Source of the DNA: Barthelona sp. PCE
Lineage: Eukaryota
Direction of reading: 5' to 3'
Assembly (NCBI GenBank): GCA_040285745.1
Contig: JAUFOR010000001.1
Span: 868,001-932,000, forward strand
Length of the DNA: 64,000 nt
Below, in pieces: positions 4,783 through 39,252 of the stretch. Made by a program: the position numbers and the translations under genes. Each line of letters starts with the position of its first letter. The first letter of the stretch is position 1. The notes under the pieces are model-generated. The model did not search any database. It worked only from the letters and a program-made list of their open reading frames with translations, and was not told the DNA's origin.

Positions 4783-7700
4783 TTATTCCTCTGCTTCTGA
4801 TAAAACATCAGAATCTTCATTTTTGGGACTATCAAACGTTGATTTTGTGCTCCTTTTACCTATTTTTTTACCCATTTTAGGTGAAACGAGAGTGCTACGG
4901 CTACGCTTTGTGATAGCCTCTGTACGTAACTTGCCAAACAAACTGTCAAAAGCACCTTTTTCCTTACTCTTCTTCTTCTTTTTACCCTTTGGAGTGCCAG
5001 GAATACGTTTCTTTGGCGTGCTAGGTGTGTCGGGTGTGTCAGGAGTGTCAGGAGATGATAAAGAATTTGTTGAAGCCAATTTTTCAAGTTTCTTCTTCTT
5101 CTTTTCTTCTTCCTTCTTCTGCCTTGTGCGATACGAATCTAATTCTTGTAAACCACGCTTGACCTGCCTGATGAGCTCAACAAAGTACGCTGTGAACTCA
5201 TAAAACGGATCCTTAGGGTTCTCTCCAAATTGCTTTATCAAATCTGTTGCGTTGGACAAAGATGACTCAACTCCGCTCTCTAATAGACCTATGGACTCTT
5301 CTTTGTCACTCACAAAAGCAGTGAAACGCTCATAAACAGGATCTGAGGGATCTAAAGCAGCAGTAAACTTTTGGACTTGCAAAAAAGATTTTTTAACTTG
5401 TTTCAGATCAAGGGAAATGGCCTCAAGATCTATCCTCGGCAGATCCAGCAGGGAATCCATCTCGTCTGCGAACGAAAGACATTCAGGTGCAGTACTCTGT
5501 AAATTGTCAAGTAAAAACATTATGAATGAAGAGTTTCCGTTCTGTAAAGAATACAGCTGGGGAAGACTCTGCAGCGAAAACCCATACGCACCTCCACCTG
5601 GTGAGCCGCTGTTGAGGATGTTGCCTGCAACCAACAGTGCGTGAAAGAATGATTTGAGGTTCTTGTTTTCGAGAATGAGTGAATGGAACTTGTTAATATT
5701 ACCAACCGTGACAAACACGCTGTCTATGAACGATCCGAGCGTTGTAAGGCTGATGAATGCCTCTAAACGATCGACTGGGTTGCCGAATTCCTCAATTAAC
5801 GAAGAGATCATAATATCCGACGGGTGTGATGACTCTGATACGATAAATCCATCAAATAGAGCCATGTCTTCGACCGATGGGAGCAGATTGCGCATGTTCG
5901 AGTACTTTGACTCCGGGATCTTTTTCACAATTTCTTCTGTGAAGGGATTCCTCACGAAATCTGCAATATCACTGATTTGCAGCTTGAGAGAACCACGTAC
6001 AATATCCATATTCTGCATTTTGCTTCCCATAACAGAGACGACCTTGTTTTCCGTCTTCTTTGCCGTCGATTCATTCTTCTTCTTCTTCTTCTCTTCCACA
6101 CCAAAAACGTCTAGGAACGCGTCTATACTGAAGAGATCGGTTGCAGTAACCTTCTTATCGAGAGAATCAATGTCTTCCCAGATTGTGTTGTCGATCTTTT
6201 TATCAGGGATCTTCTTCCACCTCAAGCGCTTCATTGGTTTGGCCAACTTCTTGTTTTTCTTTTTAGGCCGCTTGTTTTTTTTGCCAAAGCCAAAACCAGG
6301 CATACCAGGCATACCAGGACCAGGTGGAGCTCCAGGCATACCAGGAATACCAGGCATACCAGGTGGAGCTCCAGGCATACCAGGAATACCAGGTGGAGCT
6401 CCAGGAATACCAAGAATACCAGGAATACCGGGCATACCAGGCGGAGCTCCAGGCATACCAGGAATACCACCCGGCGGAGCAGGAACACCACCTGGAGGAG
6501 CAGGAATACCACCAGGTGGAGCAGGAACACCACCCGGAGGAGCAGGAACACCACCCGGAGGAGCAGGAATACCACCAGGTGGAGCAGGAATACCACCAGG
6601 TGGAGCAGGAACACCACCTGGAGGAGCAGGAATACCACCAGGTGGAGCAGGAACACCACCCGGAGGAGCAGGGATACCGCCAGGAGGAGCAGGAACACCA
6701 CCAGAAGAAGCATTATTCAGGACCTTTAGCCCAGCAACCTCACTTTTCAATCTTAAAAGATCACCATCCTTAGCATCGATAGTTTTTTTGAGCCCACTAA
6801 TTGTTGTGGCGAGCTTGGCAATCTCAGCCTTCAGCGTCATGATCTCCTTTGCATGCTCATCATCATCTACTACAATTTCGCCCTCTCCTTGAAGAATCTT
6901 GATGGCCTTTGCCAACACTTCCTGCTGAGTCTGGCTATACTTCCGGCTGGTAGGAAGGATTCCCTTCATCAATCCCTCCATTTGATCGACAACATAAAAC
7001 TCAGAATCATCTTCTTTTTGAGTGAAATAATTCTGGATAAGAACATCGTCTTGTAGAGATGAAGTCATGTCCAGGAGTATGTCAAAGAAGTTCTCCCTCT
7101 CGAGCATCTGTCTGAACCTGAATCTGTCCTCGATATCTTCTTCATTGTCGAGGTAAGTGTTAATGAAGAGCAGGAATGTACTCACTACAGCATCAGTCCA
7201 CTCACCGATGCTACTTACGAACTGGAAAGGGCGTGGTTTGTTTAGGACGGCGTTTTTTAACAGTGGGAAAGCATTATGCTTGAATAGAGTGCCTGAACCG
7301 GCAAGGACTGTAAGCATTTCCCAAGCTTGGTTAGCAATGTTGATTGGGAACGATCTGTGTGTCACGAGGCCCCAAACCACATCAACGAAATCCTGCCTGT
7401 GCATTAGCATGTCCATCGTGAAGGAGCCACCGTTAAACATAGCCTTGAAACACAGCAGGAGTTCAACCATCATGTCCCCTGACGCAACGCGGGACTTGAT
7501 GAGCCCGCCCGCAATCTTCAGCAGCTCCTGATGTCCCTTTCCCGCAATCGTGAAATCCGTCAACCAATCCATGTCCTCCGTCTTCAGAGCGGCACGGCAG
7601 TCCTGCAACACGAGTAGAGTGGGCTCATTACGGAGTTTTGCAAGGAGGAACGAAGGATTCTTGGTGCTCTCTGGCTTCTCATTAACCTCTTTCATCTTAT

Positions 7701-29048: not shown

Positions 29049-30239
29049 CTACACTGGAACGACCTTACCCTTCTTCTTTGTTGCAGTGGCTGAATGTTGT
29101 TCAACAAAAGCACGGTATTGCTCACCACATTTTTTGAATGACTTCAACAATGCAGCTATGAGCCAGTAAATAACAAACAACGCAAGAATACCTCCACTAA
29201 ACCGGAGAAAACTTTGAAAAACAACACCAATGGAGAAATCCAAATCATCAGTTTCCAAAAAATAGTACTTGAAGCCTAAAAATCTCAAGCAGAACTTACC
29301 AATAACACCAATAGGGTACATTGATGTGAAAGCAACTTGTACAGCAACATAAATATCACCAATGGTCTCGTGAGGTAAGCCATAAAGATGGTCAAACATC
29401 TCATAGACAATGGTGGTTGATGTAAAGACCCAAATCAATGAGAGAGCACTGGTCAATGCCAATGCAACGATTCCCTTATTGAATATTATACATGCAATAG
29501 TTAGGTAAACTGCAAGAATATGTAAAAAATAAGCTAATCTGTATCTACTTTGCCTTTTCAACGGGTTGGCCTTGCTTCTCTCCTTCAAATGCTTATTGAT
29601 CTCCTTGATATAACCATATTGATAAGCAAACAATATCAGATTAACAAATACTGCCCACCCAAAAAAATTAGCAAGCACGGTGAAAAGCATAAGGCCTTCA
29701 ATAAATCCCGATAATAAAATCAGGTGGGCCACCTTAGGATCCCAATTTATGCAGTCATAATAGTTTAATGTGTTTGGGTTATTATAAACAGAAGAAGAAA
29801 TATTGACCATTCTGTTTGAGTAACATATAAATCCAAAGACGGTAAATAAAGCAAATAGACTGGTTATGATGGTACATATGATGCGCACTGCATTAAAATC
29901 TTTTCCTAATTTGATATATCTATACATATAAAAAAATGAAAAATGCACAATAACAAAGAAAAAGAGCTTGTTGTATTGAATTACGGAAAATATCAGAAGA
30001 GCTGCAACAATGAAGTCAAAGACTTTGAGAAAAGTTTCAGAACTGAATATATTCTTGAAAAATGTTCCAATATTCATTCTAATAAAGGTAAAAAACATAA
30101 AAATTGGGCTGACTTGAACATCATCATCAATGTAAACTGTTGTTGTGGTGTTATGAGGCATTACAGGTGCAGTGGGTACATTTAAAGAAGGTACAACTGA
30201 AGAAGTCGGAACAACAGGTGCATTTGGGATGGATGCCAT
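29049..30239 (-). CDS. Multi-pass membrane hypothetical protein; start uncertain (30239 or 30338)
   Basis: Long hydrophobic ORF with many TM segments. Confidence 0.7.
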   Translation of the reverse strand: MASIPNAPVVPTSSVVPSLNVPTAPVMPHNTTTTVYIDDDVQVSPIFMFFTFIRMNIGTFFKNIFSSETFLKVFDFIVAALLIFSVIQYNKLFFFVIVHFSFFYMYRYIKLGKDFNAVRIICTIITSLFALFTVFGFICYSNRMVNISSSVYNNPNTLNYYDCINWDPKVAHLILLSGFIEGLMLFTVLANFFGWAVFVNLILFAYQYGYIKEINKHLKERSKANPLKRQSRYRLAYFLHILAVYLTIACIIFNKGIVALALTSALSLIWVFTSTTIVYEMFDHLYGLPHETIGDIYVAVQVAFTSMYPIGVIGKFCLRFLGFKYYFLETDDLDFSIGVVFQSFLRFSGGILALFVIYWLIAALLKSFKKCGEQYRAFVEQHSATATKKKGKVVPV

Positions 30240-30922
30240 GGGAATACCCTGAGCAGAGGCCAATGAAACGTCGGTTATGTAAAGAACGCTGGATAAGCTG
30301 GAGAAAATGAAAACGAACTTTATATGTAGTCTGACCATCTCAAGAACAAAAAATGCTAAATTCACAGTAGTCTAACACAAGTTAAACTGTCATTTAAACC
30401 ACATCTGTTAAAAGACTAAAACTTTTACAAAAAATCCTAAACATGTTCATTTTTCTTCTTCTTTGAATTGTTTGTGATGTGTACTGAAGCAAAATAGTGG
30501 CAATTTTTTGTAATATGTACGAAAAACAAATTCAAAACCTAAAACAACCACATTTAATTGACTACATCACGTTCTAACATTTCCATTTTGTCGATATATT
30601 CGTACGACTAAGGGATGCAGCCATATAAATTCTTGATCAGTGATCCTGCGATTTGATACCGTAAATATGCCCTGAATAGATAAAATGACCTCATATGAAC
30701 CTGGAAATCAGTGCCCGTTGAACTTTCCTCTCGATATATTGGTTAACAGAACTTTGCATTTGATGATTTAGGTAATTTTAAAAATTACGGAGTGTTCAAA
30801 AAAGAATTGACGCATTCAACAGTTTGAATAAAGTAAACATGAAGTTTAATAGCCCTACAATGCGGTCGTAGTATGCTAAATACACGTACAAAATGTTTTA
30901 ACTTTTGCTACCTTTTATCACC

Positions 30923-31045
30923 ATGGGATTTGCAAAACAGTTCAAAGCAGTCTTTATCGTAAGGTACAAAGATTCGATTCTTCGAAAGAAGGCCTTACTA
31001 TCTCAACTAGCAACAACTTTATTGTTTACTGCAATCTTTATTGGT
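30923..31045 (+). CDS. ABCA transporter, N-terminal 41 codons upstream of the retrotransposon
   Basis: MGFAKQFKAVFIVRYKDSILRKKALLSQLATTLLFTAIFIG is a typical ABCA N-terminus/TM1 and joins in frame to 37132 once the element is removed. Confidence 0.88.
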
Positions 31046-31175
31046 GACATACAGGCGCTAGCCTTCAGACTTTATACTTGAGGTAGTAAACAGCGGAGGG
31101 GGACGAAGCGAACCGTCATGTGTAGTAGGTGTCCGTAGGACCCGATACGGTTTTTCTTACCTTTTTCAAAAAAAA
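31043..31175 (+). repeat. Split direct repeat A1
   Basis: Identical to 36896-37029 except the terminal A-run (8 vs 9). Confidence 0.97.
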
Positions 31176-31212
31176 TCTTACTTTAGTATTGCTGCGCAAG
31201 AAATTAATTGCA

Positions 31213-31476
31213 ATGACATACTTTAGAGCGGAAAGGCAAACGAAAGAACAAGTTGCGCGCGCTATCCAGCATAGATGCGAGACGTATATTGCGCGCCTGA
31301 GTGTCGTGGTTATGGAGACCTTGTGCAAGGTCCACGAGGCGGATCCCGCCGGTAAAGCCCACTTGATTGAGGCTCTCCCGAGTTACGGGTGCGGCGAGTA
31401 CGCCGACGTAATGCTCTCACCGTGCGTGTTGAGCGAGGACTTCCGGGGGGTGGTTACAAGCATTGGGCGAAGATGA
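31213..31476 (+). CDS. Element ORF0 (87 aa), unknown function
   Basis: First ATG after A1; overlaps the open frame of ORF1. Confidence 0.45.
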   Translation: MTYFRAERQTKEQVARAIQHRCETYIARLSVVVMETLCKVHEADPAGKAHLIEALPSYGCGEYADVMLSPCVLSEDFRGVVTSIGRR

Positions 31477-32710
31477 AAGTCAACAAGGTGTTGACAAGGT
31501 CCTTCCAGCAATTTCCTTTAGCCTAGAGAGGTTTAGGGAACTTGCAAATCTTTTTGGCATGCGCCCATCCAAGTCATTAGCCAAGAATATTGAGGAGTCG
31601 GACATTAGAGGAGTCCGGGAGATGATTAGAGCTGCCGAAAATCACTGGAAGGCAGCTCCGGCTCTCATAACGCAGGAACTGGATGCGTTCAGGGCAGCAA
31701 AGAGGGAGGCCGACAAGATCGAGGGAATATCGGACGTCGACAAGAAACAGCTCATCAAGACGATTACGCAACAGGTAACGCATGCGAAGGAGCAGGCGCT
31801 GAACGAGACGCGGAAGCAGACAATGGCCGCGTGGGAAGAAGAACCATCCGATGACGAGACCGACACCCAGCACACGTCTTCGAACGCAGGAATGAACACC
31901 GCCATGCAGATCGCAAGGGACGCTACCGCTTTGGTGAGCGAGACGATGAAAGAGGCCAGGCAGAGTAGGATGAGAGCCACAACCTATAACGAACCTTTCG
32001 ATGCGGGCATCCAACAAGACAAACTACTCAGGAAGGTCAAACACCAATGGCAAAGAGGTCTGACATACGATAAGTTTACTGCCGCCATGGACAAGTTCCT
32101 CGAGGCGGAGATAAAGCGCAACCCCACGATCTTCGCTGGCGATATTGATCTCGGGCTCTGGAAAGCGGACGACGTCCTTCCGGACGCGTTTGTTGAGGAG
32201 GTGACGGACGACCACAAGGATAATTGGTTCCGCGAGTGGCAAATTCGTCTGAGGGACTTCAAGACGATCTACGAGGACAAGGTCGGATCCCAGTATGAAC
32301 ACGAGTGGCAAACCAAGCGTTTGTACTTGCTGATGGAAGCCGCAGCGGAAATGGCGTTGGGAGACACTCTCCTACTAATCGGCAAGCTGTATGAGGAACG
32401 GCCACACCTCATCCCGACCTTCATCGCTGCCGTCTCTCCATATGGTCCCAGCCGGGCCAACAGGGCGTCAGGTATCTACAACGACGAACTCAACGTCGAC
32501 CACGTGCCTGACAACTGGGTTGACGAGAATCGCGTGAAGCAATTCCTCACTAAGACGCTGGGAGTCGGTAGCTCCGGCATCATGGTCGAGTTTGACCCCA
32601 CCGCCACCAAGAAGGCGTTCAACCATTCCACGAGAGCCCCCAAGCGCACGCACCGTCCTAAGACGCAAAAGAAGAAACAAGCGTTTAGCGCCAAAGAGGA
32701 GGAGAAGTGA
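31433..32710 (+). CDS. Element ORF1, putative Gag-like protein (frame open from 31433, first ATG 31559)
   Basis: Over 400 codons, helical, with a basic C-terminus, upstream of pol; Gag assignment is positional. Confidence 0.7.
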   Translation, partial: ARTSGGWLQALGEDESQQGVDKVLPAISFSLERFRELANLFGMRPSKSLAKNIEESDIRGVREMIRAAENHWKAAPALITQELDAFRAAKREADKIEGISDVDKKQLIKTITQQVTHAKEQALNETRKQTMAAWEEEPSDDETDTQHTSSNAGMNTAMQIARDATALVSETMKEARQSRMRATTYNEPFDAGIQQDKLLRKVKHQWQRGLTYDKFTAAMDKFLEAEIKRNPTIFAGDIDLGLWKADDVLPDAFVEEVTDDHKDNWFREWQIRLRDFKTIYEDKVGSQYEHEWQTKRLYLLMEAAAEMALGDTLLLIGKLYEERPHLIPTFIAAVSPYGPSRANRASGIYNDELNVDHVPDNWVDENRVKQFLTKTLGVGSSGIMVEFDPTATKKAFNHSTRAPKRTHRPKTQKKKQAFSAKEEEK

Positions 32711-33070
32711 AATCGTTCGTCTCCCCCCGCGCGCGATAGTAAATATCTATCCGACAAGGGCGTGGGAGACGCAAATGATCCCAATGCGGTCACAGCGCTC
32801 GCGGACAGGGTCGGCGAGCTCTCCATCGAGAACGTCAAATTGAAGAAGGAGATCAAGAGCCTCAAGAAGGAAATCCCTAAGAAGCAACTCAAAGCCGCGA
32901 AGATGGAACTTCGCGCAGCTACCAAACTCGTGGAGCTCGAAGACAAAAAGACTAGAAGCCATCAAAGCTCGGGAAAGGAGCACACAGAAAACAAAAAGCA
33001 CCTGAGGACGTTAAACGGGATAAGCCCCGTAAGGAGAAAGCACCAACAGCTACTAGCGTGCAGAAGATGA
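32711..33070 (+). CDS. Element ORF1b, in-frame continuation past the ORF1 TGA (coiled-coil, basic)
   Basis: Same frame as ORF1, 119 sense codons after the TGA. Confidence 0.55.
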   Translation, partial: NRSSPPARDSKYLSDKGVGDANDPNAVTALADRVGELSIENVKLKKEIKSLKKEIPKKQLKAAKMELRAATKLVELEDKKTRSHQSSGKEHTENKKHLRTLNGISPVRRKHQQLLACRR

Positions 33071-36000
33071 TCTCCAAGGAGATCAACAAACTCAAACACG
33101 AGGTTGTAGATGAGCGGAATAACGTCCAAATCTCAAGAAATCCGAAGGAGGTAGTCGGCACAGACACCATGCAGTGGCCGGCCGCGGCGCCACCAGTAGC
33201 TCTGCTGAAGCACCTCCCACCCGACATCTTCCAGAAGGGCGGCCCAAGTCAACGAGTACTCAAAGAGGTGGTCCTAGGGGTTACCGGAACATGGGATATC
33301 CTCGGAACAGACCAGATGAAGATCAATTCAGCCGACACGCCCACGGAACAGTTCGTTAGGGACGCCGCGCGCGTCGCTGGCCTCAGCTGCGAAGAAATTG
33401 AGAAGACAGTCCGACTGCTCGTGACTGAGGGCGTAACGCGCGACATGGTCGTTATCGAAGGAAAGAAGCCTCGCAGGCAGGAGCCAGTACGTCACTGGTA
33501 CAAAGACGACGCTGTCGAATTGAACCTGGCCGTAACCGCGCTCAAAAGTAAGGACCTGATCAAAGAGGTCCCCATCGAAGAGATCGAGGACGAACGAAGG
33601 GCATTCATTTCCATCGGCGCGGTCCCGAAGAATGCAGAACCGGACTCAAACAACATGTTCGCTCCGACGCAGAAGTTCGAATTTGACGTCACATCGCCGG
33701 ACAACGAGCACAGGGTTATCGTCGACTGTACTAACACGAACTCTATGTTCGCCAACATTCCAATGGAACTCATCAAAACCCACTCTCTCGAGATTGTCAT
33801 GGGTGGCAATCTCATGTATTCCGTCGACGCAAAGGATGGTTTCACGCTCATTCCACTGGACGAAGAGCTACAAAAACTGTTCTCATTTACACACGAAGGT
33901 AAGCTTTATCAATGCACTAGAATGCCGTTCGGAGTTTCATTCGGCCCGGCCATCTTCGCCCGCATGATGAACCTGGCAACGACCGCAATGCGTGCGTTGG
34001 GATTCAACATCTGGAGCTACGTCGACGACGCTTTCGGATGGGAACGATCCCTCAGCAAAGCGAGGAACTCGATGATGCTGTTCATAATCATCGCGTCGAA
34101 ACTTGGCATCAAGCTAAACTACAAAAAGTCCGTCAGTCCTTCGTACAAATTGGACATCATCGGCTACACGCTGAGCACCGACGACCAGTCTGACGGCGGC
34201 CGGCTAGTCTCAACAATTAGACCGTCGGACAAGAACATCAGAAAGATCAGAGAGATGGCTCGCGTAATGCGAAATAGAATCGACACAGCAGAACAAATCC
34301 CTGTCAGGGACATCATGAAGCTCGATGGCAAACTTGTATCATTTGCCAACGCCTCGACGATTCTTCAGCGGGTTCACCTACAGCTACAAGCAGTACTGAA
34401 GGATCTCGACGCCCAATACGATAACGCGATATTTGACTCGAGCAGGAACAAGGGCCTACGCCTTCTCCTACCTCTTCCACTAGCCGACGCACTCACGAGC
34501 ATCGTTGAATGTAACTTTGAACCGAAGACGCTGAGCTGCGGTAGAGCTAAGGTAACATTACTGAGCGACGCCATGAAGGACCAGAAACATATAGGCATTG
34601 GAGCGAAGGCATACCCAGACGACGACCAAGAGCTCTCGTTCGAACTTCTCCACAGGATGGGAGTGAACGAGCAAGGAGCAAGAAGGATGTTGACACTTCT
34701 CGACGATCTGCCAGAACAGGAAAGAGTAGACATCGAGCAGAACACTGTCGCAACAATCGCGGAGCAGGAGATGGTACCGATCGTCGAGCTACTCAAGACT
34801 AAGGGCAGACAGCTGAGGAACACCGAAGTCGTCTGGTATTGCGACAACACGAACGTATGCGCCGCTGTCGCGAAGGGCTACAGCAAAAACAAGGTCCTCA
34901 ACAAGGGGGCCCGCATAGTGATGGAACTGTGCGAAATGTGGGACGTGATCGTCACACCAATCTACATCAACTCAGAACAGAATTATCTTCCAGACAGCAT
35001 CTCAAGAGGAGCATCGTCGGAGTCGTGGACCAACTCTACGACATTCGTGCACGAGATTCTCCCAGCTAGGGTAATCGAGTTCAAGACATCCGTCGTCGCA
35101 AGCCTCTACGAACCTGGACACATCCCAGCACTGTACGTCCGCGGTTTCCAGCCCACAAAAGGAAAGTCCAGGAGATCAACGAAAGCCGCACATGTGACAA
35201 GACAATGTCTCGGACAAGACCTTATCTCTCTAGGCGAGTATGACCTCAAACGGAATGCGCTCAAGGTCGACAATGTTGCGAACGGGACTGCACACTGTAC
35301 AGGTAAGCTCAAAATCGTCGAAGGATTCGATGACACAAGATACACCGTCCCTCTATCGAATATGGCGATCATCACGAGAGACAACGAAAGAATCGAGGCA
35401 ACAGTTCCGACTTACTCCGCAGCCACAAGCTTAGAGATAGTCATTCTCAAAGTGTGCAGAACCGGCGCGGAAGTAGATGTGATCCTCCCCGGACCACTCC
35501 CGTCTTGCCCATTGTGGGCTACAATCGCACAAAAGACCATCCCATTAAGTGATGGATCCATAAAGATAAGAGTTACGAGAGAAAAGGTTCTCGGCGGCGA
35601 ACCCGAGGACTACAAGCCCGCTGGAGCACGCACTCAGAACCCGGTACAGGTACGGGGCAAATCACTATCTCTGGCAGATCTGTTCGCCATCCCACCGTCG
35701 ATGGACTACGACGAAGTGCTCGAACTCTTTCTGAAAAAAGGAGCGCACCAACCAACGAGGAACATGCTACATCGCTTCGGGAACTTCGTTCAAAAGGTGC
35801 ACAGCACAGAAATAGTGGACGTCGCATGCCCAGGAAACGAAAAGAGACTTGAAGAGCTGATAATCGAGTTCAGATTCAGACTCGAACAGGAAACAAAATC
35901 GAAGAGGCGTGCGAACGGCGACACCACCGAAGTATGGAGGTACACCTCAGATACGATTAACAGTTACATTTTCCACCTGCGTAAAGGACTGCTGGTTCTG

Positions 36001-36879
36001 AAAATGTTCATCACCGACAAGAAATCTCTCCTCACGACCGAAGAACTCGAGCAACTCGTCCAGCTTAGGGCGGCAGTAATCAGATGCACACTGAGCGAGA
36101 GCTCAGAAACACAGAAATTCGCCATCAGCACGTCAGCAATCAGATTCCTGGCGGCAAGAGAGATTGAAGAGCTTAAAGCACTGGTCCAGGAAGGTACCAC
36201 GAAGAAGAAGGCCCTTCAGAAGCTAAACAAAGTAAGAAGAAGAATTGCTATGATGTCATCAATGTACAACTTAGGATGCAGAGCGGCGTCTCTTGCCGCA
36301 GTCAAGACCCACCAAATTGAAGTCTCAAAATCCGGCGATGTCACGGTAACGCTGGACAAAGTGAAGAACCAACAGGGTCGACCAACCAGCTACATGATCC
36401 CCAGAAACGTATGGGAGCTGGGCACACTGCACGACTATTTAAACGACGCTGTGCAAAGAGCAAAAGAAGGAGGTAAAGAGTTTATTTTCTCGAACGGCGG
36501 AGAAGCCCAGAGCGTCTCGAATGCATTAAACACCATGTTCCGAGATTACAACGAGAAAATCAAGCAATCTGACCACAAGAATGCAAGCAAATTCAGAGTA
36601 TTCAAAATGACAGCTCATGGCCTTAGAGCCGGCAGGGCAAAAGAGATAGCACAACATCCAGATGCGACTGTACGAGTATCAGCGCAAGGAATGGGTCTCT
36701 GGAAGGATGTGAAGGCGATGAACCTTGACTATCTCACGAAACCACTATTGACGTTTGAGGAACGAGAGGTGTTGAGTCCGATGGAATTGGAAGGATGGGT
36801 TTTAGGCCACTTCCCGGACGAAACACCCTCTACACGTGAAGGCGAGCCTTCCCACGTGAGCGTTCCCCGACGTCAATAA
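33067..36879 (+). CDS. Element polyprotein: reverse transcriptase - RNase H - tyrosine recombinase (frame open from 32956)
   Basis: RT: VDAKDGF, RMPFG, YVDD (34018-34029), LDIIGY. RNase H: LSDA, EQE, YCDN, PDSISR. YR: GCR, KVKNQ, HGLR, GLW, DY. Confidence 0.95.
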   Translation: MISKEINKLKHEVVDERNNVQISRNPKEVVGTDTMQWPAAAPPVALLKHLPPDIFQKGGPSQRVLKEVVLGVTGTWDILGTDQMKINSADTPTEQFVRDAARVAGLSCEEIEKTVRLLVTEGVTRDMVVIEGKKPRRQEPVRHWYKDDAVELNLAVTALKSKDLIKEVPIEEIEDERRAFISIGAVPKNAEPDSNNMFAPTQKFEFDVTSPDNEHRVIVDCTNTNSMFANIPMELIKTHSLEIVMGGNLMYSVDAKDGFTLIPLDEELQKLFSFTHEGKLYQCTRMPFGVSFGPAIFARMMNLATTAMRALGFNIWSYVDDAFGWERSLSKARNSMMLFIIIASKLGIKLNYKKSVSPSYKLDIIGYTLSTDDQSDGGRLVSTIRPSDKNIRKIREMARVMRNRIDTAEQIPVRDIMKLDGKLVSFANASTILQRVHLQLQAVLKDLDAQYDNAIFDSSRNKGLRLLLPLPLADALTSIVECNFEPKTLSCGRAKVTLLSDAMKDQKHIGIGAKAYPDDDQELSFELLHRMGVNEQGARRMLTLLDDLPEQERVDIEQNTVATIAEQEMVPIVELLKTKGRQLRNTEVVWYCDNTNVCAAVAKGYSKNKVLNKGARIVMELCEMWDVIVTPIYINSEQNYLPDSISRGASSESWTNSTTFVHEILPARVIEFKTSVVASLYEPGHIPALYVRGFQPTKGKSRRSTKAAHVTRQCLGQDLISLGEYDLKRNALKVDNVANGTAHCTGKLKIVEGFDDTRYTVPLSNMAIITRDNERIEATVPTYSAATSLEIVILKVCRTGAEVDVILPGPLPSCPLWATIAQKTIPLSDGSIKIRVTREKVLGGEPEDYKPAGARTQNPVQVRGKSLSLADLFAIPPSMDYDEVLELFLKKGAHQPTRNMLHRFGNFVQKVHSTEIVDVACPGNEKRLEELIIEFRFRLEQETKSKRRANGDTTEVWRYTSDTINSYIFHLRKGLLVLKMFITDKKSLLTTEELEQLVQLRAAVIRCTLSESSETQKFAISTSAIRFLAAREIEELKALVQEGTTKKKALQKLNKVRRRIAMMSSMYNLGCRAASLAAVKTHQIEVSKSGDVTVTLDKVKNQQGRPTSYMIPRNVWELGTLHDYLNDAVQRAKEGGKEFIFSNGGEAQSVSNALNTMFRDYNEKIKQSDHKNASKFRVFKMTAHGLRAGRAKEIAQHPDATVRVSAQGMGLWKDVKAMNLDYLTKPLLTFEEREVLSPMELEGWVLGHFPDETPSTREGEPSHVSVPRRQ

Positions 36880-36898
36880 ACCTACTTCAGTATAAGGT
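36797..36898 (+). repeat. Split direct repeat B1 (contains the pol stop codon and AATAAA)
   Basis: 102 nt identical to 37030-37131. Confidence 0.97.
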
Positions 36899-37029
36899 GA
36901 CATACAGGCGCTAGCCTTCAGACTTTATACTTGAGGTAGTAAACAGCGGAGGGGGACGAAGCGAACCGTCATGTGTAGTAGGTGTCCGTAGGACCCGATA
37001 CGGTTTTTCTTACCTTTTTCAAAAAAAAA
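36896..37029 (+). repeat. Split direct repeat A2
   Basis: Copy of A1; shares GGT with the end of B1. Confidence 0.97.
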
Positions 37030-37131
37030 GGGTTTTAGGCCACTTCCCGGACGAAACACCCTCTACACGTGAAGGCGAGCCTTCCCACGTGAGCGTTCCC
37101 CGACGTCAATAAACCTACTTCAGTATAAGGT
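37030..37131 (+). repeat. Split direct repeat B2
   Basis: Copy of B1; ends TATAAGGT. Confidence 0.97.
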
Positions 37132-39252
37132 CTGTACCGGTACTTAATACCCCAGATTACGTCACAGCTCGAAGAAGCAAAGAACCCAGAAATCATACAC
37201 GCTAAGGGAACTTTAGATCCCATCTACGTTATTGGTGCAGCTCCTTCAGACATCAAGAACGCTTTCACGAACATAGACGAAACATTCGCAAACAAAGAGG
37301 ATTACTTTGAAGCAGAGCGCTCCAAATACCTTGATTATAATGATTTAAATGGAGGATTCCAAGTGGATGAGTCAACACCCAATGTCACTATAACCCTTTT
37401 CGCTCCTGAAGGCCATGAAACAGAAAGATCGCTCAACCTCCTCAACGGATTGTCAAAAGGTATATTCAAGTTGAAAGGTGCTCAATTATCGCCTGAGATG
37501 ACAACTCAGAACATGCCCATAGTTTCAGACTCCAAGAACGTTCTCTTAGTAGTGAGCAAAGTCTTTATGTTCTTCCTCATCATCCCCCTTGTGAACCCGA
37601 CGCAGCCAATCATCCAGACGCTCGTCAGGTATAAGGAGAAGGGAAAGCGCAAGCATCTTGCCATGATGGGTTTGGGTCGTTTGCCCTGGTGGGTTGGTAA
37701 TGTATGCGCCGACTTTATCATCTACCTGATGGTTGCCACTGTGTTCCTTGTCGCGCTTTTCTTTGCCGACTTAATCATTGTAACATTGGTTCCCTGGTAC
37801 GTGCATGTTTTTACGTTCTTAACGGTCTCTTTCTCGTATCTGACCGTTGCCTACATCATTTCCCTTATATTTAAGTCGGAGAAGGTCGCAGTCACAATCA
37901 GCGGTCTGTTTATGCAACTGTTGATATTCATTCCGTTGTTATGGGAACTATTCCTGAACTTCCAAGGAGAAAATGATTTGGAGTCATTCCATCTCGCAGC
38001 TGCTTTCTTCCCTGGATACAACTTCTTGCTTTTCTATAATACTGCCACTGATATTTTGCTTCGTGATGAGCAAGTGCAACTCTTCTTTGGTAACATTGTT
38101 CTCCGTAACTGCTCGATATCCCTTCTTCTCTGGAGCATTTTTGGCATTGTTCTGGTCTATATAATCGACAGGGTCTCGTTCAAGCTGGGCCGCGTTCTGA
38201 AATCAAACAGCGATAGTGCTTCCAAACGTATCTCTCCCTTCAGATCTCCTGACGTCGAGAGCGAGATTGCCCGTGTTAACGGATACCGCAACAAAGCGCT
38301 TCTCAAGATTCAAAACATCTCAAAGACGTTCCCTGTCAAAGGCGAAGAGGATGTACATGCTCTCACCAACGTAAACCTCCTTGCCGAGGATAACAACGTC
38401 ATCGGCCTTGTCGGACCGAACGGAAGCGGAAAAACGACACTCTTCAAGACAATTATCGGTGAGCATGTGCAGACAAATGGTAGCATTTCCATTAACGGTC
38501 TTGACACCAGAAGAGACGCTGAGGAAATCTGGAAGATTCTGTCGATTTGCCCACAGGAGGATATCGTTTTCGACCGTTTAACGTTCAGAGAGCACCTGCA
38601 GATAGTATGTCTCATACGAGACGGTGGTGAAGAAATGATGGATGAACTCATCAGATTGTTCAGCGTTGAAGAGTACATGGATAGGTGGGCTGAGCGCCTC
38701 AGTGGTGGTAACAAGCGTAAGCTCATGATCATGCAGGCATTGTCCGGCCCCAAGGAATCATCTCAGATCTTGTTGCTCGACGAACCCACCGGTGCTATTG
38801 ACGTCAGTGCCCGACGAAACATCCATCGCATCATCCATCAGTTCAAGGAAGATCGCCTCATCGTCGTAACATCGCACTCGATGGACGAAATTACACGTCT
38901 CTGCAACCGTGTCTGTATACTCAGTGTCGGACACCAAAGGGCTATCGGAACGCCCCTCTATCTCACTAAGCAGTACGGTAGTGGTTATGTCTTGCATGTT
39001 CGCAGCAACGGTGCTATGAACGTCAAGGCGATAATTGAGCAGCAGTTCCCCTTCATAAAGGAAGCCAACTACTCGGGTACTGTTTCAATTTGGAACTGTC
39101 CACCTGAAACTGATTTGGAAGAAATTTACCGCTATTTCCTTCCCAACAAGGAAAAGCTCGGTATCATTGATTGGTACATCAACCAGACGACCCTCGATAG
39201 TGTCCTTATGCGTTTCACTTCAGAGGCGATCCAAATGGGGCTCATGTCCTAA
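37132..39252 (+). CDS. ABCA half-transporter, remainder (reconstructed full length 747 aa)
   Basis: Open from 37132 (LYRYLIPQ...); TM domain, Walker A GPNGSGKT, signature LSGGNKRKL, Walker B LLLDEP. Confidence 0.92.
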   Translation: MYRYLIPQITSQLEEAKNPEIIHAKGTLDPIYVIGAAPSDIKNAFTNIDETFANKEDYFEAERSKYLDYNDLNGGFQVDESTPNVTITLFAPEGHETERSLNLLNGLSKGIFKLKGAQLSPEMTTQNMPIVSDSKNVLLVVSKVFMFFLIIPLVNPTQPIIQTLVRYKEKGKRKHLAMMGLGRLPWWVGNVCADFIIYLMVATVFLVALFFADLIIVTLVPWYVHVFTFLTVSFSYLTVAYIISLIFKSEKVAVTISGLFMQLLIFIPLLWELFLNFQGENDLESFHLAAAFFPGYNFLLFYNTATDILLRDEQVQLFFGNIVLRNCSISLLLWSIFGIVLVYIIDRVSFKLGRVLKSNSDSASKRISPFRSPDVESEIARVNGYRNKALLKIQNISKTFPVKGEEDVHALTNVNLLAEDNNVIGLVGPNGSGKTTLFKTIIGEHVQTNGSISINGLDTRRDAEEIWKILSICPQEDIVFDRLTFREHLQIVCLIRDGGEEMMDELIRLFSVEEYMDRWAERLSGGNKRKLMIMQALSGPKESSQILLLDEPTGAIDVSARRNIHRIIHQFKEDRLIVVTSHSMDEITRLCNRVCILSVGHQRAIGTPLYLTKQYGSGYVLHVRSNGAMNVKAIIEQQFPFIKEANYSGTVSIWNCPPETDLEEIYRYFLPNKEKLGIIDWYINQTTLDSVLMRFTSEAIQMGLMS

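Follow-up and report, generated by a model that had tools for sequence, protein, structure and literature searches.

A window of 64,000 nucleotides from Barthelona sp. PCE, a member of the Metamonada (GenBank assembly GCA_040285745.1, contig JAUFOR010000001.1, positions 868,001 to 932,000 of the forward strand; coordinates below are those of the window), carries at 31043..37131 what is in all likelihood a young, autonomous-type retrotransposon of the DIRS order, Ngaro-like by its anatomy. The element is a very divergent one inside the known DIRS/Ngaro class, rather than a new type of element. It has split direct repeats, a pol open reading frame (ORF) in which a reverse transcriptase (RT) plus an RNase H are followed by a C-terminal tyrosine recombinase (YR), and an insertion site at which no target-site duplication was found. 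An earlier note, made from the letters of the window, had proposed a divergent tyrosine-recombinase retrotransposon with PAT/Ngaro-type split direct repeats in a protist host, and both the repeats and the domains support that proposal. The features of the element and of the gene in which it lies are as follows.

30924..31042, + strand: opening ~40 codons of the host gene that the element interrupts, an ABCA-like transporter (the flanks join into one open frame)
31043..31175, + strand: repeat A1, 133 nucleotides, left end of the element, starting with GGT
31213..32710, + strand: gag-like region, so called from its position; ATG 31213 is the start of the long frame in sibling copies
32708..32710, + strand: TGA closing gag, inside the 33-nucleotide interval 32707-32739
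32712..32779, + strand: predicted stem-loop a few bases past the TGA, candidate readthrough stimulator or structured intron
32741..33066, + strand: Lys/Glu-rich coiled-coil linker between gag and pol
33067..36879, + strand: pol ORF, 1270 amino acids, with RT, RNase H, domain X and YR in one unbroken frame
33454..34266, + strand: reverse transcriptase, RVT_1 match, YVDD at 34018-34029
34549..35052, + strand: RNase H (D501, E568, D593, D643)
35053..35640, + strand: domain X, ~195 amino acids, conserved in all four Barthelona families
35641..36798, + strand: tyrosine recombinase, N-terminal helical part and Cre-like catalytic domain
36797..36898, + strand: repeat B1, 102 nucleotides, containing the final 27 pol codons and the stop, GGT at its end
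36896..37028, + strand: repeat A2, sharing GGT 36896-36898 with B1
37030..37131, + strand: repeat B2, 102 nucleotides, right end of the element, closing with GGT
37132..39252, + strand: rest of the ABCA-like transporter gene (ABC2_membrane_3 and ABC_tran)

Split repeats and the insertion site

A repeat search showed that A1 is identical to A2 over 133 nucleotides and B1 to B2 over 102 nucleotides, both pairs at 100% identity and in the order A1...B1A2B2, just as the earlier note had described them. Perfect repeats of such length are far beyond chance. The A-tract at the repeat end counts eight A in A1 and nine in A2, which accounts for the length of 133/134 nucleotides given in that note. As in Ngaro-like elements, the inner B1A2 lies downstream of the YR, and the pol stop (36877-36879) falls inside B1. 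No pair of inverted repeats was found within 29500-38500, the hallmark of DIRS1-like elements being inverted terminal repeats with an internal complementary region (ICR). The interior holds two ATG-delimited ORFs (31559-32710, 383 amino acids; 33067-36879, 1270 amino acids), and the element stands out from its surroundings by a G+C content of 0.51-0.535 against 0.36-0.47 in the adjacent bins, with an AT skew of about +0.25 and an A-rich sense strand. A and B were the sole dispersed repeat families in the 64-kb window, the other two of the four repeat families belonging to a tandem array of 21-nucleotide units. This array (~12 units, 6300-6750) belongs to a formin gene on the minus strand, whose product has FH2 and Drf_GBD domains, and codes for its proline-rich FH1-like part. 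An Rfam scan gave a single miRNA match, at chance level and outside the element, and no tRNA genes were found.

When position 31042 is joined to 37132 a single open frame results, running from ATG 30924 to 39252, and since joining the flanks restores this frame the element must have interrupted the ABCA-like gene about 40 codons in. The trinucleotide GGT is found at the left end (31043-45), at the inner B1/A2 joint (36896-98) and at the right end (37129-31), and no target-site duplication was seen at the one insertion site examined. A trinucleotide common to the junction and both flanks, without target duplication, is a property of the DIRS order, here seen in one copy, and the GGT pattern matches the trinucleotide rule described for DIRS integration in the relevant passages of PMC7192593. 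The element is surrounded by ordinary unique DNA with no repeat cluster. The window as a whole is gene-dense, with long uninterrupted ORFs that include IFT80, a tubulin-tyrosine ligase, a CEP76-like protein, WDR55, a DEAD helicase and a kinase, housekeeping and ciliary proteins of flagellates.

These features can be read in the light of the published DIRS/Ngaro model. A sub-genomic RNA reaching from A1 to B2 would be reverse-transcribed, and the inner B1A2 copy would serve to rebuild the ends and link them into a circle, closed by a B|A junction. The Cre-like YR would then recombine the GGT of the junction with a GGT in the target, an outcome that would leave a GGT at either flank and the target unduplicated. 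In DIRS-1 the cDNA is for the most part linear and single-stranded. Both gag and gag-pol might be made from one RNA, with pol produced through occasional readthrough of the single in-frame TGA. According to the account of reverse transcription given in PMC6681497, identical A and B pairs are to be expected at the time of insertion.

The pol domains

The earlier note had described a single ORF of ~1270 amino acids with an RT (YVDD), an RNase H (D-E-D-D) and the full YR catalytic set, and every one of these residues was recovered. As that note had advised, the ORF was checked by Pfam and by profile comparison, and the three enzymes were recognized by different means: the RT by Pfam, the RNase H by hhalign and the YR by several concordant lines. 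The RT gave a match to Pfam RVT_1 (E 1.3e-14, pol residues 238-369), with YVDD at pol residues 318-321, and it also matched the solved structures of pararetrovirus, foamy virus and Ty3 RTs; a profile of the four Barthelona families introduced below reached E 5e-15 against 8r0s, a pararetroviral RT. No Pfam family matched the RNase H in the window's pol. In an hhalign comparison of residues ~479-656 with the RT_RNaseH regions, as labelled by Pfam, of four database matches, a probability of 99.0% (E 5e-18) was obtained with E, D and D aligned, and the element has in this way the RT and the RNase H of the long terminal repeat (LTR) retroelement type that are found in the DIRS order. The catalytic residues of both the RNase H and the YR are invariant across the four divergent families, with the exception of D501, whose column is absent from one gene model.

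The YR carries the residues R1072, K1100, H1184-x-x-R1187, W1212 and Y1222, and the set R, K, HxxR, W, Y is invariant in the four families at 18-28% identity. A profile of the YR from the four families matched Cre at E 9.5e-4, its R, K, HxxR and W falling opposite those of Cre, and the full-length four-family profile did so at E 2.9e-4. When it was compared by hhalign with the YRs of four matches of the DIRS/PAT type, all of R, K, HxxR, W and Y were aligned (E 4.9e-4, probability 32%). An AF2 model was made of pol residues 655-1270, and only its YR part was used, the pLDDT of the catalytic core being 60-80. Among the Foldseek matches listed for this YR model all were tyrosine recombinases (Cre, lambda Int, XerA/XerH, Tn1549 Int and a Staphylococcus integrase), the best at E 2.4e-3 and none below 1e-3. 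A YR profile search in a word-indexed set of proteins of 212-772 amino acids gave no match. Each single line is weak to moderate and the lines are concordant, and the element has the YR of the DIRS order. Pfam scans of the element revealed no rve (DDE) integrase and no aspartic protease family, and the D[TS]G motif was absent in all four families, as in other elements of the order.

Domain X lies between the RNase H and the YR, which is the position of the methyltransferase (MT) in DIRS and PAT elements. In the alignment of the four families many of its columns are invariant, so that the interval is not a mere spacer. No recognizable relative of domain X was found in Pfam, in the ESM Atlas or in the word-indexed homologue search, in which pol residues 650-1270 retrieved only their own cluster, and over domain X the pLDDT of the AF2 model is mostly 21-56. 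The Pfam Dam model gave no match in the window's pol at E<=1, and it detected an MT in 11 of the 145 non-Barthelona matches scanned. A custom MT hidden Markov model (HMM), built from those 11 domains, recognized the MT body in 65 of the 162 proteins collected; those of Barthelona aligned to no more than its first 50 positions, which correspond to the end of the RNase H. Comparison of the RNase H-to-YR interval with an alignment of 60 MT domains by hhalign gave a probability of 1.2% in local and 0.1% in global mode. As judged by these profiles the element would appear to be without an MT, as are Ngaro-like elements and as PAT-like elements are not. At the end of domain X (window 35560-35586, pol residues 832-840) stands a motif of eight residues, KIRVTREK, which is met again close to the N-terminus of another Barthelona protein, P0010, at residues ~9-27, and in a looser form at the corresponding position of P0013; a processing site, a nested fragment or simply a motif that is repeated are conceivable readings.

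The passage from gag to pol

The gag-like region is predicted to be all-helical with a basic tail. It gave no Pfam match and no CCHC (zinc knuckle) motif was found in it, and its AF2 model (mean pLDDT 38.4) is uninformative. The linker that follows has a weak match to bZIP_1. In the sibling copies of the element one frame leads from the ATG equivalent to 31213 through gag, across one in-frame TGA and the coiled-coil linker, into pol. When the sibling protein P0004 was mapped on the window by tblastn, it fell into three pieces.

P0004 residues 1-85: window 31213-31467, frame 1
P0004 residues 79-583: window 31448-32995, frame 2, including an 11-codon gap
P0004 residues 580-1876: window 32986-36876, frame 1, 99.7% identity, gap-free

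The 11-codon gap corresponds to the 33-nucleotide interval 32707-32739, which all five deposited gene models remove as a predicted GT..AG intron. The frame is identical before and after this interval, and the TGA is the only stop within it. A stem-loop is predicted to follow (minimum free energy -33.1 kcal/mol, z = -1.88); it has modest support, as 9 of 200 shuffled sequences folded equally well. Between the shift into frame 2 and the return to frame 1 lies a mismatch-rich stretch, and compared with its siblings the window has one extra base in each of three homopolymers, the G-run 31444-31449 and the A-runs 32944-32948 and 32992-32996. Because the extra G shifts the frame, the gag ORF of the window begins only at 31559. 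The earlier note had called the element complete, which has to be qualified for gag and the linker, in which the three one-base insertions lie.

Whether these insertions belong to the DNA bears on the state of the copy. The assembly, according to the methods given in PMC11316075, is a Nanopore assembly polished with Illumina reads, so that the three homopolymer differences may be errors or real mutations. A copy killed by real insertions is a serious possibility, if somewhat less likely than not: the frame of the P0004 alignment does switch from 1 to 2 to 1 with the mismatch-rich stretch between, and the sites are one G-run and two A-runs. Against it, repeats are polished poorly in an assembly of this kind; a short-read contig of run X2 has one base fewer at 32993 (it is clipped at 32946), though it possibly comes from a sibling copy; and the rest of the copy is well kept, with both repeat pairs at 100% identity and the pol differing from P0004 at 4 of 1297 residues. 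The other reading is an intact copy with Nanopore homopolymer errors. For the TGA itself we lean towards readthrough as the way in which pol is reached. Removal of the stop by splicing of a real 33-nucleotide intron seems doubtful, even if a GT..AG intron is used by five of five deposited gene models and the annotation pipeline, as outlined in PMC11316075, took RNA-seq hints. The same gene models invent short introns exactly at the frameshifts of the window (P0007), and an interval whose length is a multiple of three and which holds the sole stop is the classic layout of in-frame readthrough. Moreover, a spliced template RNA would have given copies from which the interval was missing, yet it is present in all five models, and no splice joint is listed among the short-read contigs, whose cover is thin there. 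Readthrough is favoured over splicing both because the predictor bridges frameshifts with introns and because spliced templates would yield copies without the interval.

Families, relatives and classification

A word-indexed search with the whole pol retrieved one cluster only, its five members all annotated as 'hypothetical protein' of Barthelona sp. PCE. Pairwise identity among these five is 97.9-99.5%, and they are spread over at least three contigs. One of them, P0007 (2533 amino acids), splices the retrotransposon polyprotein onto the ABC transporter, and as it runs on into the transporter gene downstream in the window it is the window's own gene model. An exhaustive HMMER search gave 5189 matches at E<=1e-3, only two of them at E<=1e-30; what is said below of relatives outside Barthelona applies to the best 150 of the 5189. 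After the element's own cluster came four more Barthelona proteins, P0008 (37% identity), P0009, P0010 and P0013, and the best match outside Barthelona stood at E 8e-21 with 28% identity. P0158, a full-length relative of P0008, as well as P0010 and P0013, are colinear with it over the full length of the polyprotein, with the same YR at the end, and by this shared layout the genome contains at least four families built as gag..RT-RH-X-YR (RH, RNase H), three of them on other contigs and at 18-28% identity to the family of the window. P0009 resembles a decayed copy of the P0008 family. The earlier note had allowed that the fusion of the YR to the RT might be a mutation of this one copy; this is not so, since the siblings are colinear with an uninterrupted pol and in three other families the YR ends the same gene model. 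Its suggestion of a possibly active lineage also stands, in the form of a young family that may be mobile: the family is multi-copy and near-identical, and the copy in the window is well preserved and probably recently mobile.

An assembly artefact was ruled out, as five gene models are colinear and short-read contigs agree at >=99%. A joint in run X3, with sides of 21 letters and 1141 foreign letters, was taken as spurious. In a run of the same study that bears a second organism code, pieces of the element were present at >=99% identity in nine of the ten contigs aligned to window 30000-38200; the run possibly represents one and the same culture, labelled differently, or else a closely related strain.

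The elements of this order are divided in the classification passages of PMC4157794, PMC7192593 and PMC6681497 into DIRS1-like elements, with inverted repeats, an ICR and an MT; PAT-like elements, with split direct repeats and an MT; and Ngaro-like elements, with split direct repeats, the inner repeats after the YR and no MT. VIPER and TATE, described in PMC6681497, have split direct repeats, no MT and the order gag, YR, RT/RH. With split repeats, the YR last, no detectable MT and no inverted repeats, and with gag, RT/RH and YR in this order on one strand, the Barthelona element is Ngaro-like by anatomy. A DIRS1-like element was ruled out by the lack of inverted repeats, a VIPER-like one by the domain order, the YR being C-terminal here, and a Crypton DNA transposon by the presence of an RT. 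A Ty3/gypsy LTR retrotransposon was ruled out as well, there being no rve, no LTR pair and no target duplication, and the rve-bearing RTs forming a separate clade.

RT trees were made from the best 150 matches, a quick tree of 116 proteins and a careful one (LG+G4) of 57 chosen from them; near-duplicates of the Barthelona families were left out, as were rows whose RT match spans <150 query positions (the latter including the YR-labelled P0082, P0138 and P0153). A 100/100 branch separates the rve-bearing Ty3-type RTs from all others and places the Barthelona families on the non-Ty3 side, where the backbone is unresolved. There, the four families group weakly (81/79) with P0055 and P0146, both of which are without an MT body. 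Among the rows from outside Barthelona in which 300 residues or more follow the RT, an MT was present in 48 of 60, and eight of the other 12 were of the rve type. Such a tree would seem compatible with a Ngaro-like element, a PAT-derived one or a lineage of its own, and it cannot decide among them.

Several observations weigh against the Ngaro-like, recently mobile element that we propose. The best-scoring RT relatives outside Barthelona are mostly MT-bearing and of the DIRS/PAT type (48 of the 52 among those 60 rows that are not of the rve type), and the label 'Ngaro-like' is one of anatomy, the trees consisting of unnamed or uncharacterized proteins, with no named Ngaro, PAT, DIRS1 or VIPER references. 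The YR matched Pfam Phage_integrase at E 0.002 and 18.3 bits, under the cut-off of 27.1, and its AF2 model is poor (mean pLDDT 47.6). With a single insertion site, the GGT specificity amounts to one observation; neither RNA nor a circle junction nor an empty allele was observed, the short-read contigs of runs X1 and X2 covering inner parts of the element only. Unless the assembly is in error at these points, the three one-base insertions break the gag-to-pol frame of the copy in the window, and the single frames of the three further families are known from gene models, in which predicted introns may hide breaks.

Two other placements have to be considered. If domain X were an MT that had diverged past recognition, the element would be PAT-like. 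Its location exactly where DIRS and PAT elements have the MT, the split repeats that PAT shares with it, the prevalence of MT among those 52 non-rve relatives and the MT-bearing neighbours in the quick tree all speak in favour of this. The three profile tests stand against it, namely the silence of Pfam Dam, the custom HMM that found MT bodies in many of the collected proteins and only the RNase H tail in those of Barthelona, and the hhalign probabilities, and we regard a degenerate MT as improbable. Only slightly less improbable is that the Barthelona families are a lineage of their own, as might be suggested by the distance to the best outside match, a YR too divergent for the Pfam cut-off, a domain X without counterpart and the merely weak grouping of the four families with the two proteins that lack an MT body. 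The anatomy satisfies every structural trait of Ngaro-like elements, and the tree that might have set the families apart has an unresolved backbone and no named references among its best 150 matches. A bolder proposal, which we put forward as speculative, is that barthelonids harbour an old, diversified and still mobile YR lineage of superfamily rank, represented in a single compact genome by four or more families that share 18-28% protein identity, with a single gag-RT-RH-X-YR polyprotein gated by readthrough, no protease, and domain X in place of the MT.

Ngaro-like retrotransposons are among the known systems closest to the element described here. Zebrafish DrNgaro1 and the Ngaro elements of fungi and Cafeteria burkhardae share with it, in the descriptions given in PMC8547959 and PMC4157794, the arrangement A1-[ORFs]-B1A2B2, the order gag, RT/RH, YR without an MT, a length of ~6 kb and, in the YR, both HxxR and the catalytic Tyr. 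It differs from them in its gag, which is in the same frame with one TGA between, in the ~195 residues of domain X between RNase H and YR, in its metamonad host and in a YR that falls under the Pfam cut-off, kinship being judged by anatomy. PAT-like elements (Pat1, Toc3, Kangaroo) are similar in their split direct repeats, in the order RT-RH-[domain]-YR and in the likeness of the RT to those of MT-bearing elements; their defining MT was not found in the Barthelona element, whose gag is without a zinc finger. The TATE/VIPER elements of kinetoplastids resemble it in split direct repeats, in repeat pairs that are 100% identical when the copy is young, in the lack of an MT and, in Bodo saltans, in single-ORF copies, and differ in the order gag, YR, RT/RH, as reported in the pertinent parts of PMC6681497. 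Like DIRS-1 of Dictyostelium, as portrayed in PMC7192593, the element has RT, RNase H and YR, lacks a protease as well as a DDE integrase, and shows one trinucleotide at both flanks and at the presumed circle junction, with an inner copy of its termini by which the ends would be restored; unlike it, it has no inverted repeats, DIRS-1 having inverted terminal repeats, an ICR and an MT. Outside the order, gammaretroviruses have an in-frame stop between gag and pol that is overcome by readthrough. They are alike in having one such gag/pol stop with a stable RNA structure, a predicted one in the Barthelona element, close behind, and differ in that the stop is UAG, while it is TGA in the Barthelona element, which has no protease and for which readthrough is a proposal.

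The earlier note had further taken the in-frame union of RT, RNase H and YR to be undescribed, which it is not. An in-frame YR was already reported for fungal Ngaro by Muszewska et al. (PMC3783388), and in Bodo saltans two copies of TATE consist of a single ORF, according to the relevant passage in Ribeiro et al. 2019 (PMC6681497). We also found single predicted proteins with both RT and YR in two beetles (P0036, P0153) and one crinoid (P0082), of which P0036 and P0082 bear an MT as well. What is new here is the metamonad host group, the deep divergence, the conserved domain X and a gag-TGA-pol arrangement in one frame. No report of YR retrotransposons in Metamonada was found in open-access literature text (supplements not included), and the text of the Barthelona genome paper (PMC11316075) contained no word beginning with 'retrotranspos'.

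In the deposited annotation these elements figure as 'hypothetical proteins' of the host, and the gene model of the window, fused to an ABC transporter, needs correction. The features of the Barthelona element merit follow-up by specialists, and as a compact element with intact-looking copies it is suited to tests of the model of circle junction and trinucleotide. Retrotransposons with a YR are rare, their distribution is patchy, and whether they arose once or repeatedly is debated. Several deep families in the small, gene-dense genome of a free-living anaerobe provide a distant sampling point for this debate.

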